Source of the DNA: a virus
Taxonomy: Duplodnaviria; Heunggongvirae; Uroviricota; Caudoviricetes
Length of the DNA stretch: 41,033 bases
IMG/VR virus record: IMGVR_UViG_2541047701_000006
Strand: one strand, 5' to 3'
Of the stretch, positions 6,625 through 8,391 are shown in pieces. The notes under the pieces were generated by a model. It was not told where the DNA came from and made no database searches. It was given only the letters and a program-made list of their open reading frames with translations. The position numbers and the translations under genes are program-made. Within the stretch, counting starts at the first letter, position 1. The number at the start of each line of letters is the position of its first letter.

Positions 6625-6987
6625 TTAATGACCTGCTGCGCGGAGTTTTCCGTCAGGTTCACCGGCAAGAGTCAGTAATTGTCCCTGGTCTTCCTGCAGA
6701 ATAGTCAGGCGACCACCGCGATTGACATACATCGGCGTTTCGGTGGTGTCTTCTTCGGAAATTTTCCCGCGGTTAGTCGGGCGAACATATGAGAGTTTGT
6801 GTTTGATTTTTACACGGTTCTCATCAAATGGTTCGATTTCCAGGTTGAGTGAGACCTTACCTTTGGTTTTCGTGTTCATCACACCTGAAGCGACTTCACT
6901 GAGAACTGCGCCGATTTTGGTTTCAAATACGCCGCCGTCCAGCTCCCCGATAAATGCCTGCACATCAGTACTGCGTTCGCTAGCCAT
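6625..6987 (-). CDS. Hypothetical protein (YfdP-like), first gene of leftward early operon
   Basis: Start set at MASERSTD (ATG at 6987) with AGGAG 7 nt upstream; the longer track ORF to 7173 has an implausible N-terminus. Confidence 0.5.
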   Translation of the reverse strand: MASERSTDVQAFIGELDGGVFETKIGAVLSEVASGVMNTKTKGKVSLNLEIEPFDENRVKIKHKLSYVRPTNRGKISEEDTTETPMYVNRGGRLTILQEDQGQLLTLAGEPDGKLRAAGH

Positions 6988-7329
6988 TTTGCTGCTCCTC
7001 ATCATATCGACCCTGCAAGGTCGGTTGGTTTCTCCACAAAACAGAGAAGAACACCTGCGGTGGCAGCCGCCCGGATGGATTGGGTTATGAGCCCGTCGTC
7101 CGGTGATGCTCTTCTCTGTTTTGTAAAAAGAGCGGTACCAGCCGGAAGCAAGTGTACAAACTGGTACCGCCAAAGCAGTGGCTGTTGTGGTGACCGGTGC
7201 TGATCTCCGGCTTGCGGTTATTTCAGACTCTCACGGGCGTTTAATTGCCCCGCCGAACAGCTCTTTTCCGCAATAGCTGCAATGTCTTTCGCGCATCAGC
7301 CTGCGCCTTCACCACAACTCTAAAAACAA

Positions 7330-7382
7330 ATGTAGGATATCCAACATGTGAGTGTCAAGAGTTTATGTTGGTTATCCTACAT
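7330..7382 (-). promoter_or_regulatory. Leftward early promoter/operator module (PL/OL-like)
   Basis: Two inverted copies of an 18-bp near-palindrome (ATGTAGGATATCCAACAT at 7330-7347; ATGTTGGTTATCCTACAT at 7365-7382) flanking TTGACA on the minus strand; same architecture as the module at 8117-8165. Confidence 0.5.
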
Positions 7383-7398
7383 AAAAAGATAGGCTCAT

Positions 7399-7426
7399 AA
7401 AAAAACCGGGGATACCCCGGTTTTGC
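7399..7426 (-). terminator. Rho-independent terminator after repressor gene
   Basis: AAAAAACCGGGGATACCCCGGTTTTG: GC-rich stem plus U-tract on the minus-strand transcript, just past the repressor stop. Confidence 0.55.
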
Positions 7427-7444
7427 GATAGTGAGGAAGATGTG

Positions 7445-8098
7445 TCAAAAATCCATTATTACTTGTTTGACAAGACCAACTATTCTGCAGTTCTCACCGC
7501 ATTCAATAGTTTTATAGTTAGGATTTAGTGGGACGAGATACCTGTTCGGCCAGTCCTCAACAAATTTTTTGAGTGTCGCTTCTTGCCCACCATTGATATG
7601 GGCAACAACGATTTTTCCGTTAATACACTCTGTATCAATAATATCTGGCTCTACGATAACGATAGAACCTTCTGGTATCGATGGTGAGCCGAGGGGATTG
7701 GTCATTGAATCACCACGGACCCGTAGTGCAAATGCCATTTCTGATACAAGGGCGGTAGTATAAACCCACTCTTCAGCATCTTCTTTCCTGACACCAGGCT
7801 CCGTCATTGTCCATGAACCCGCCTGAACCCACGAGATGAGGGGGACTTTTTTAACTGCGAATATTTCAGGTTTTAGATTTATCTTTGGTTCAGGCGAGCC
7901 TTTTCCGCTAACAAGCCACAGAGGATCGCATTTAAGTGCGTTGGCTAGGGCTTGAAGGTTGGCTCCATTTGGTTGGTAGTCGTCCTTTTCCCATCCAGTA
8001 ACCGTGACACGGTTCACACCAGTCAAATCAGCCAGTGCTTGTTGTGTCAGGTTCAGTTCTTTTCGCCTTTGGCGAATACGATCACTCATGTTCATCAT
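7445..8098 (-). CDS. CI-like prophage repressor (HTH_XRE N-terminus, S24/LexA-type autopeptidase C-terminus)
   Basis: N-terminal HTH (LTQQALADLTGVNRVTVTGWE); C-terminal S24 signature (RVRGDSM serine, ATLKKF lysine); first ATG at 8098, track ORF starts at a TTG at 8122. Confidence 0.8.
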   Translation of the reverse strand: MMNMSDRIRQRRKELNLTQQALADLTGVNRVTVTGWEKDDYQPNGANLQALANALKCDPLWLVSGKGSPEPKINLKPEIFAVKKVPLISWVQAGSWTMTEPGVRKEDAEEWVYTTALVSEMAFALRVRGDSMTNPLGSPSIPEGSIVIVEPDIIDTECINGKIVVAHINGGQEATLKKFVEDWPNRYLVPLNPNYKTIECGENCRIVGLVKQVIMDF

Positions 8099-8116
8099 GT
8101 AGGCAATCCTACCACA

Positions 8117-8165
8117 TGCCAATGTAGGATTCTTGACATTGACATGTTGGATATCCTACATTTCT
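8117..8165 (+). promoter_or_regulatory. Rightward early promoter/operator module (PR/OR-like)
   Basis: Tandem TTGACA hexamers overlapped by operator ATGTTGGATATCCTACAT (8143-8160) and a partial copy at 8121-8134; between divergent repressor and cro-like genes. Confidence 0.5.
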
Positions 8166-8193: not shown

Positions 8194-8391
8194 ATGCGGA
8201 AATCCGACGTGATTAATTATTTCGGCGGAGTTTGTAAAACCGCCGAAGCCCTAGGTATTAAGCATCCGTCTGTTTCAGAGTGGCCTGAGATTATTCCTGA
8301 AGGCCGAGCGTACCAGTTAGAAAAAATTACTAACGGGAAACTGAAAGTTGACGTGTCTTTATATCAAAAGACTAACAGTGCTGCGGCATAA
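8194..8391 (+). CDS. Cro-like repressor (YdaS-type HTH)
   Basis: 65-aa ORF divergent from the repressor; position and size typical of Cro; RBS GGGAGA. Confidence 0.65.
   Translation: MRKSDVINYFGGVCKTAEALGIKHPSVSEWPEIIPEGRAYQLEKITNGKLKVDVSLYQKTNSAAA

Follow-up and report, generated by a model that had tools for sequence, protein, structure and literature searches.

What fills the space between the leftward promoter and the first early gene of a lambdoid prophage that has no N gene? The question is raised by a stretch of viral DNA of 41,033 nucleotides (nt) (Caudoviricetes; IMG/VR record IMGVR_UViG_2541047701_000006), which at its full length we call the window and which is an N-less lambdoid prophage of the SfV / mEp460 / cdtI / Stx2c type. 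A leader of about 340 nt separates its leftward promoter, pL, from the early-left gene yfdP; the initial annotation had read it as a structured RNA, perhaps a cis-acting element such as a put-like antiterminator or riboregulator, or a small RNA (sRNA). We find that non-coding RNA modules, strung together and transcribed leftward from pL, make up the leader. Its most telling feature, absent from that annotation, is an exact anticodon stem-loop of initiator tRNA inside a long inverted repeat. The overall explanation that we judge best, and advance tentatively, is a chain of modules made up of a homolog of the published sRNA-17 and an excised, trans-acting mimic of the anticodon arm of initiator tRNA (tRNAfMet).

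A three-way-junction RNA carries a copy of the anticodon stem-loop of initiator tRNA

The part of the leader nearer to yfdP contains the following features.

7124 to 7036, minus strand: three-way-junction RNA (predicted fold and covariation)
7105-7124 with 7036-7055, minus strand: P1 helix of 20 pairs (about 25 in the predicted fold), closing the junction
7097-7103 with 7071-7077, minus strand: P2 helix, carrying the anticodon-type hairpin beyond an internal loop
7078-7096, minus strand: core AC-GGGCUCAUAACCC-AAUC, with an internal loop of AC opposite AAUC
7094-7082, minus strand: hairpin GGG-CUCAUAA-CCC, three G-C pairs and the loop CUCAUAA
7070-7057, minus strand: P3 hairpin GCGG-CUGCCA-CCGC
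7028-7035, minus strand: tail GGAGAAAC just 3' of P1, whose predicted pairing with the upstream U-run extends P1

The perfect 15-bp inverted repeat reported in the initial annotation (7036-7050 with 7110-7124) is present as the outer part of 25-nt arms, 7036-7060 and 7100-7124, that are 84% complementary. The further hairpins said to lie within it are borne out as well, in the form of P3 and of the P2 arm with its anticodon-type hairpin. Folded alone (7026-7133, minus strand), the element has a z score of -7.3.

One arm of the junction carries the 14-nt CGGGCUCAUAACCC, identical to the anticodon stem-loop of the Escherichia coli K-12 initiator tRNA metZ; the 14-nt CGGGCTCATAACCC is the exact K-12 metZ sequence. 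The 7-nt anticodon loop with U33 and A37 is present, and the stem has three pairs only, followed by the internal loop. Three consecutive G-C pairs in the anticodon stem are typical of initiator tRNAs. The core matches once in the window, where 0.01 matches are expected by chance. Its AC/AAUC internal loop occurs in every copy of the element that we collected, the core being fixed by selection in those copies found by pattern.

The copy in the window has a 20-25-bp stem, no CCA and no D arm, and its P3 loop, CUGCCA, is not a T loop. ARAGORN found no tRNA in the window or at the copies from late leaders described below, and the Rfam tRNA model gave no match at E≤10 on a late-leader copy whose four neighbouring tRNAs scored 54-66 bits. 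With Rfam 15 there was no match at gathering score in the window and nothing relevant at E≤10 between 6500 and 7500. The element is unannotated in RefSeq records. A literature search did not find the core sequence; most subscription journals lay outside its coverage, and an earlier description is possible. Searches on yfdP and sRNAs, on N-less SfV-type phages, on tRNA mimics and decoys and on the P1 ban operon returned only the sRNA-17 paper and general background. The sRNA-17 part of the leader is already known, and the mimic appears to be undescribed.

Compensatory changes support the variable helices

Pattern scans for the core gave at least 120 stretches from viral contigs, 25 from genome contigs and at least 120 from metagenome contigs. 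All copies except two on a P1-type plasmid were collected by patterns that fix the 20-nt core, so the constancy of the core, its G-C pairs and its loop in the sets of 47 and 52 sequences analyzed below says nothing alone. Conservation of the tail among the 47 likewise says little, because its presence was a selection criterion.

The check proposed in the initial annotation, folding and covariation across relatives, came out in favor of the pairing. Among 47 distinct early-leader copies, 94.2% of cells were paired, compared with 41-53% when the 3' partners were slid; 10 pairs had changed on both sides (84 cells), and the covariation score of 0.187 (0.097 when shuffled) was reached in 0 of 500 shuffles. 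For 52 distinct cores the corresponding values were 90.8% paired, 28-55% slid, and a score of 0.311 against 0.120, again reached by 0 of 500 shuffles, with six of the seven P2 pairs changed on both sides. Double changes were seen in P1, P2 and P3 alike. The 20 pairs of P1 were paired in 96.1% of cells across homologs, and P2 took at least 10 distinct sequences (for example CCGGGUG/CACCCGG, CCUGAUG/CAUCAGG, CUGUCUG/CGGGCAG and CUCCAAUCG/CGAUUGGAG). Compensatory changes support all variable helices of the element.

The two diverged copies on the P1-type plasmid, which were found by a model of the element, keep AC, GGG/CCC, UCAUA and AAUC and vary at loop positions 32 and 38. When scans of the whole viral collection were forced to another anticodon, they returned 8 real copies (UAU, AAU, CCU, CGU), compared with at least 126 carrying CAU, and the third anticodon position was unchanged in all 8. 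These variants (L279, L282-L288) are single-base changes in otherwise intact elements.

Among the 47 early-leader copies, 42 have U-G at one pair of P1, and 16 have G-U at a different P1 pair. Such pairs would be mismatches on the other strand, and the RNA sense is therefore the minus strand. They also bear on the idea that the conserved object is a site in DNA, either a protein-binding palindrome or a recombination site. In keeping with such a site, the inverted repeat is long, break points of homology between phages fall near its borders, and at the borders of modules in the P1-type plasmid CACAAC/GUUGUG strings are found repeatedly. However, the structure conserved inside the repeat is asymmetric, the orientation of the element is always that of the surrounding operon, and the G-U pairs at several positions of P1 become A-C mismatches on the opposite strand; what is conserved is therefore not a symmetric DNA palindrome. 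We consider a DNA-level site very improbable.

Substitution patterns speak similarly to a missed small protein, which the initial annotation had named as a finding that would undo its reading. Candidate frames exist, namely a 49-codon open reading frame (ORF; 7002-7151, minus strand), an N-terminal extension of yfdP and a 47-codon ORF on the plus strand; the 49-codon ORF, which starts with TTG, and the extension, in frame and also from TTG, are the only minus-strand ORFs between yfdP and cI. Some records annotate ORFs here, and phrog_33599 (ORF 7002-7151, minus strand) and phrog_3651 (7060-7203, plus strand), both families of unknown function, match translations of opposite strands. Neither minus-strand ORF, however, is conserved as a frame among 135 variants. 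The distance from core to tail varies from 38 to 64 nt and falls into all three classes modulo 3 (83, 39 and 13 of the 135 contexts), 37 of the 135 have an in-frame stop in the 49-codon frame, and the substitutions keep base pairs, G-U included, and not codons. The K-12 YfdP starts at the same ATG though the leader is absent there. The two PHROG families were probably built from mis-called ORFs, because repeated mis-annotation of a conserved RNA would produce matches on both strands. We give a small protein almost no credence as the explanation of the region.

Three further ideas were dropped because the variants gave them no consistent support: a kissing interaction between the P3 loop and the small-hairpin loop, a pseudoknot formed by start-codon pairing, and a mini-ORF beginning at the (A/G)UGGAGAAA tail.

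Interchangeable scaffolds in leaders and tRNA arrays

The element belongs to an RNA family that is widespread in phages and whose scaffolds are interchangeable. In early-left leaders the scaffold is a stem of 20-25 bp, and after tRNA genes in late leaders it is a 6-bp acceptor-like stem with CCA. We tallied 189 distinct contexts. About 150 are of the early-leader type, in which P1 is long, P3 varies and the tail reads (A)UGGAGAAAC; in 146 of the 150 a T-run lies directly 5' of P1. By inspection, these copies have a hairpin before the T-run and a small hairpin with a (U/G)GCAG loop after the tail, usually with a yfdP homolog next. About 28 contexts are of the tRNA-array type. Here the start of the element lies 6 nt past the CCA end of a tRNA, and its 6-bp stem, GGCCUG/CAGGCC, is followed by (A/G)CCA; 24 distinct contexts have both an upstream tRNA and this CCA end. 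In Klebsiella phages, tRNA arrays (Asn, Arg, Thr, Phe) situated between the gene for the Q antiterminator and the lysis genes end with the element.

The other contexts, about 10, include late leaders without tRNAs. With roles read from translations, Raoultella has a Q-like ORF, the element, a holin-like ORF and a lysozyme-like ORF, in that order. Pantoea has a Q-like ORF, a hairpin with a U-run and the element, then holin-, lysozyme- and Rz-like ORFs, and Pantoea phage PA-1 has a copy upstream of lysis genes. The motif was found in about a dozen genera of Enterobacterales and on one Acidobacteriaceae contig, where the P1 and P2 sequences are unrelated and the copy adjoins a lysozyme-like gene. 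Shiga-toxin phages, Shigella serotype-converting phages and Salmonella ST64B have the mimic, and phage P1 has a diverged form. There are further metagenomic variants; the gene contexts of two (L227, L265) were uninformative. A record titled Chryseobacterium sp. 18061 (L139) holds an early-leader copy of the typical enterobacterial kind, and the start of the next gene resembles that of yfdP homologs; assembly contamination or a recent transfer is the probable source.

In phage P1 the C1-controlled ban operon has the order P1ban/P2ban promoters with the C1 operator (Op72), a dicF-like region, trnA, trnT, an unannotated stretch, tciABC, trnI and ban. On a P1-type plasmid that has the ban region in common with the phage, trnT is followed by a T-arm-like long-stem module, an sRNA-17 body, another long-stem module and two diverged mimics. 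This chain of modules lies at L277 1780-2900 on the minus strand, and in phage P1 (NC_005856) at 69.5-70.2 kb (L278 1201-1935). The P1-type module with a perfect T-arm-like hairpin, GGGUUCGAAUCCC (L277 2628-2722), has a folding z score of -5.7, and a further long-stem module of the plasmid one of -5.4. The mimic could belong to a wider set of tRNA-part mimics on long processing stems, of which the T-arm-like module of the ban operon may be another. Two annotated ORFs of phage P1, plp and upl, run across this stretch on the other strand and may be spurious. A sub-threshold Rfam match to the Salmonella sRNA STnc100 (L277 1825-1944, minus strand; 39.2 bits, E 9e-7, with a gathering score of 47) directly follows the second P1-type mimic copy on its 3' side; the window has nothing similar.

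The neighborhood of tRNA genes raises the question of whether the element is a decaying tRNA pseudogene or mosaic filler of no present function. It does adjoin tRNA genes in several phages, both ARAGORN and the Rfam tRNA model reject it as a tRNA, and anticodon point variants exist. Yet the 20-nt core is identical where the flanks share no similarity, the Acidobacteriaceae contig included, and compensatory changes maintain the helices in many lineages. A functionless remnant is hardly probable in our view.

The promoter-proximal module is the counterpart of sRNA-17

sRNA-17 is a 193-nt RNA from an mEp460-like prophage of E. coli K1 RS218, mapped by 5' and 3' rapid amplification of cDNA ends (RACE) and by Northern blot (Sun et al., 2020; PMC7719688). 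We placed it on the window through the primers and Northern probe published there. On the plus strand the full-length forward primer fits 7126-7157 without a mismatch; the reverse primer fits 7287-7319 on the minus strand with 2 mismatches, and the probe fits 7208-7257 with none. The polarity of the probe implies a minus-strand RNA. The prophage type (mEp460-like) and the downstream gene, yfdP, are the same in both. Judged from these matches, 7319 to 7126 on the minus strand is thus the counterpart of sRNA-17. The modules concerned, and a small hairpin near yfdP, are as follows.

7319 to 7126, minus strand: sRNA-17 homolog, 194 nt (primers and probe of PMC7719688)
7309-7318 with 7184-7193, minus strand: 10-bp closing stem of the sRNA-17 body (repeat search)
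7125-7172, minus strand: GGTACC hairpin (7132-7172), 13 bp, GC-rich, then CUCUUUUU (fold)
7008-7023, minus strand: small hairpin CGACC-UUGCAG-GGUCG, upstream of the yfdP ribosome-binding site (predicted fold)

Position 7319, which matches the 5' RACE end, is 10 nt past the -10 element of the promoter (7334-7329), and the 3' RACE end determined in RS218 falls at the counterpart of 7126, within the U-run that follows the GGTACC hairpin; the RNA thus begins just past a promoter and ends at a stem-loop with a U-run. The immunity region of the window is not that of RS218, and the promoter is different for this reason. The closing stem encloses hairpins that include GCGCA-GGCUGA-UGCGC. The sRNA-17 homologs at hand are at least 97% identical, and covariation was limited to a comparison with the diverged paralog on the P1-type plasmid, in which the closing stem and two hairpins are kept with 4 compensated pairs; as only three sequences were compared, this is weak evidence. 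A 21-codon ORF in the sRNA-17 body (MRERHCSYCGKELFGGAIKRP; about 7228-7293, minus strand) has no PHROG match and is absent from that paralog.

The stem with GGTACC that the initial annotation had placed at 7134-7168 sits within a perfect 10-nt repeat, 7132-7141 with 7161-7170. The hairpin folds at -21.2 kcal/mol (z -4.2) with a predicted loop of 15 nt, and an automatic terminator scan of the window that takes loops of 3-8 nt did not list it. From the predicted fold, the hairpin and its U-run read as an intrinsic terminator or attenuator, and they coincide with the 3' end of sRNA-17. Every transcript extending beyond this point includes the three-way-junction RNA (7124 to 7036).

As to the structured leader RNA itself, the initial annotation was right: on the minus strand, downstream of pL (7358-7329), the region folds with z scores from -4.9 for the whole leader (6980-7335, relative to shuffles) to -7.9 for 7020-7180 (-72.4 kcal/mol, compared with -43.7 ± 3.6 for shuffled sequences; 0 of 200). 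The plus strand of 7020-7180 folds more weakly (z -4.4). The leader is at least two independent modules and not a single 340-nt element, because the modules occur separately in other phages. The sRNA-17 body, for instance, occurs alone after tRNA genes on the P1-type plasmid. Homology to other phages ends variously at about 7321, at 7192 or at 7172-7173. Of the earlier proposal of a cis element or sRNA, the term sRNA has held for the promoter-proximal 194 nt, which the sRNA-17 reagents match, and the single element of about 340 nt has not.

The leader, whole or in part, is matched in 2611 of 5426 complete E. coli genomes, about half of them, and at least 80% of it in 585. Databases leave it unannotated or give hypothetical ORFs on either strand. 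The published RNA covers only the promoter-proximal leader and ends before the inverted-repeat element. It is presented as trans-acting and ArcA-controlled, and its nature as a pL leader with an attenuator-like hairpin goes unremarked (PMC7719688). That a published virulence-linked sRNA is the promoter-proximal part of a prophage pL leader changes how sRNA-17 phenotypes are to be read.

Hairpins with (U/G)GCAG loops recur in the same place, before the first gene, in other copies of the element. At many loci, loops of this type are found both as P3 (7057-7070 in the window) and as the small hairpin after the tail (7008-7023); examples are GGCGG-UGGCAG-CCGCC and GCCC-UUGCAG-GGGC. Some long P3 inserts resemble a duplicated (U/G)GCAG hairpin, with no evident function.

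Antitermination and effects in cis

No N-family gene was found as the first pL gene among the ORFs between pL and yfdP, as the initial annotation had said, and the proposal that an RNA-based processive antiterminator, HK022 put-like or boxA-like as in ribosomal RNA (rRNA) operons, replaces N is a natural one. The whole phage group is without N, and the element is located in the leaders of long operons. Late-leader copies lie just past a terminator-like hairpin and U-run, where lambda tR' would be expected, and CGCUCUUUUUACAA at 7133-7120 (minus strand) resembles boxA. Like HK022 putL and putR, moreover, the element is a structured RNA in the early leader of an N-less lambdoid phage.

The put-like idea fails on position, because the element lies downstream, not upstream, of the hairpin and U-run where sRNA-17 ends. 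The put sites precede terminators in both early operons and consist of two stem-loops, whereas the element has one copy in the window, none in the rightward (pR) operon, and forms a three-way junction with a tRNA-like arm. The element model gave no match at E≤10 in the HK022 pL-nun region, which also folds differently, and no motif common to the element and put was detected; the reverse comparison, with a put model, was not run. Late-leader copies coexist with Q, which already supplies antitermination, and farther along the pL operon a scan of the minus strand turned up few terminator-like sites.

The match of CGCUCUUUUUACAA (7120-7133, minus strand) to boxA is to the consensus GCUCUUUA(ACAA), and the boxA-like CGCUCUUUUUA at 7133-7123 overlaps the 3' arm of the hairpin and its U-run. 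The string is not kept: its place is taken by GCCCUUUUU or GCACUUUUUU in other variants, which makes a fortuitous resemblance probable. In a lambda-type nut site, boxA (CGCUCUUA) precedes a boxB hairpin whose loop is of the GAAAA type; no boxB-type loop is present here. Altogether, we regard an antiterminator as improbable.

A stronger competitor holds that the leader acts purely in cis. The long P1 duplex would offer RNase III a cleavage site, and together with the tail and the small hairpin it would determine how stable the yfdP mRNA is and how well it is translated, as in the lambda N leader; the hairpin and U-run would be an attenuator, and the resemblance to tRNA an evolutionary leftover. 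As in the lambda N leader and rRNA processing stems, a near-perfect duplex of at least about 20 bp is present: P1, at 20-25 bp and about 50 nt from the yfdP start. The GGAGAAAC tail and the small hairpin stand between the element and the ribosome-binding site, and yfdP homologs follow most early-leader copies.

The RS218 data also bear on this competitor. When the sRNA-17 body was swapped for a chloramphenicol-resistance (CmR) cassette, yfdP reads rose from 0.5 to 47, about 96-fold, and yfdR reads rose as well, which the authors interpret as trans regulation (PMC7719688). The strongest sRNA-17 'target' in that strain is yfdP, the immediate downstream gene of the same transcription unit, followed by yfdR (PMC7719688, Table 1). 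Disrupting the upstream leader thus raised the reads of both genes, and the fact that the top targets adjoin the leader in one unit suggests a cis or polar effect over a trans effect. Given this geometry, with the leader directly upstream, we infer that an effect in cis on read-through, or an effect of the cassette, is at least as likely as one in trans.

What a purely cis leader does not account for is the conservation of the anticodon-arm core, when the P1 and P3 sequences vary freely and the junction between duplex and gene is not kept. The core is also found hundreds of nt from the next gene (late leaders), in tRNA arrays and before unrelated genes. A role confined to cis is possible, if somewhat unlikely.

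A proposed role in trans

We therefore return to the explanation by a trans-acting mimic of tRNAfMet, which we favor because the anticodon-arm mimic would be the only part common to the products of all scaffolds. Three observations point to mimicry: 14 nt are identical to the anticodon arm of tRNAfMet, the core is kept while the flanking helices covary, and CAU predominates among the anticodons. The conserved mimic of initiator tRNA, in leaders and in tRNA arrays, suggests that these phages interfere with some reader of tRNAfMet.

That the element is excised and acts in trans is what we infer for its mechanism. The hairpin and U-run may act as an attenuator, in which case only read-through transcripts would carry the element. 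The scaffolds would serve as processing cassettes that release a small stable RNA, the long duplex being cut by RNase III and the tRNA-like version being handled by RNase P and 3' trimming. The released RNA would then mimic the anticodon arm of tRNAfMet and occupy a host factor that reads it. Candidate partners, among which we make no choice, are three known readers of this arm: a VapC-type tRNAfMet nuclease, the 30S P site with initiation factor IF3, and methionyl-tRNA synthetase (MetRS). The RNA would benefit the phage at two stages, soon after infection or induction and once more late in the cycle.

Enteric VapC toxins cleave initiator tRNA (Winther and Gerdes, 2011, as cited in PMC10264068), and tRNA-fMet is generally avoided among phage-encoded tRNAs (PMC10264068). 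Phage tRNA arrays as counters to tRNA-cleaving defenses (PMC10264068; PARIS papers) share a neighborhood with the element, in late leaders and in the P1 ban operon, and share the idea of evading anticodon nucleases or compensating for their action. Unlike the tRNAs of those arrays, the element lacks a D arm and a T loop, and tRNA finders do not recognize it. In its most specific form the proposal is that temperate phages of Enterobacterales, and at least one prophage-like locus of Acidobacteria, encode an excised RNA that counterfeits the anticodon arm of initiator tRNA as a trans-acting decoy or inhibitor of tRNAfMet nucleases (VapC) or as a ligand of the 30S P site. We rate this form unlikely as it stands; if true, it would be an RNA-based device for counter-defense or translation takeover of a kind not yet described.

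Several points weigh against the mimic. Apart from the two P1-plasmid copies, collection by patterns that fix the core leaves its real invariance uncertain, and copies with point changes in the anticodon exist. The late-leader versions are nearly invariant, so covariation is uninformative on their acceptor-like stem. The copy in the window lacks CCA and lies behind a terminator-like hairpin and U-run, and its dose could be low for these reasons. The resemblance could also reflect descent from a tRNA-Met or tRNA-Ile2 gene, with a selected function other than mimicry. Finally, the approximately 96-fold rise of yfdP in RS218 fits a purely cis role of the leader, and a cassette effect is also possible.

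tRNA mimicry as such is a known kind of device. Parts of tRNAs are mimicked on non-tRNA scaffolds by the E. coli thrS operator, the 3' tRNA-like structures of plant viruses and mascRNA. These and the element all imitate part of a tRNA locally, the late-leader version even with an acceptor-like stem and CCA. The element differs in imitating an initiator tRNA, in being phage-borne and in lying in operon leaders, and has no sequence homology to them; they sit at a synthetase gene or at the 3' end of a genome. DicF and other sRNAs that are processed from early operons of prophages resemble the element in being non-coding RNAs of a repressor-controlled early operon, and one and the same operon of phage P1, ban, has a dicF-like region and the diverged copies. 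In contrast to DicF, the element has no evident antisense target, and the two have no sequence relation; processing of the element is a proposal only.

Prophage setting

The leader is flanked by the following features.

7358-7329, minus strand: pL-type promoter TTGACA-18 nt-TACATT, sigma-70-type (promoter scan, 10 of 12 matches)
7330-7347 and 7365-7382: operator-like inverted repeat, 18 nt, 94% complementary, with the promoter inside it (repeat search)
7402-7424: 10-bp hairpin with A/T runs on its flanks, just 3' of cI (repeat search)
7445-8122, minus strand: cI, with HTH_3 and Peptidase_S24 domains
8194-8391: P22-type cro, followed by a CII-like gene
6625-6987, minus strand: yfdP, the first early-left gene (ORF list; matches phrog_204)
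6995-7000, minus strand: yfdP ribosome-binding site GAGGAG, with the start codon at 6985-6987 (direct reading of the sequence)

yfdP is followed by yfdQ (DUF2303) and yfdR, the latter two with Pfam matches. The order cI-leader-yfdP, without an N gene, is common to SfV, mEp460, cdtI and Stx2a_WGPS2, and the SfIV genome paper reports that N, cII and cIII are absent from SfII, SfV and SfIV. A weak Rfam match to Termite-leu (7357-7439; 21.7 bits, E 0.055) covers the operator repeat and the hairpin and U-run 3' of cI, and was regarded as chance.

In the K-12 prophage CPS-53 the entire pL leader is missing from the spacer between yfdO and yfdP (L130 7248-7604). There, an iteron-like repetitive stretch that continues from the remnant of the replication gene yfdO abuts the yfdP ribosome-binding site.

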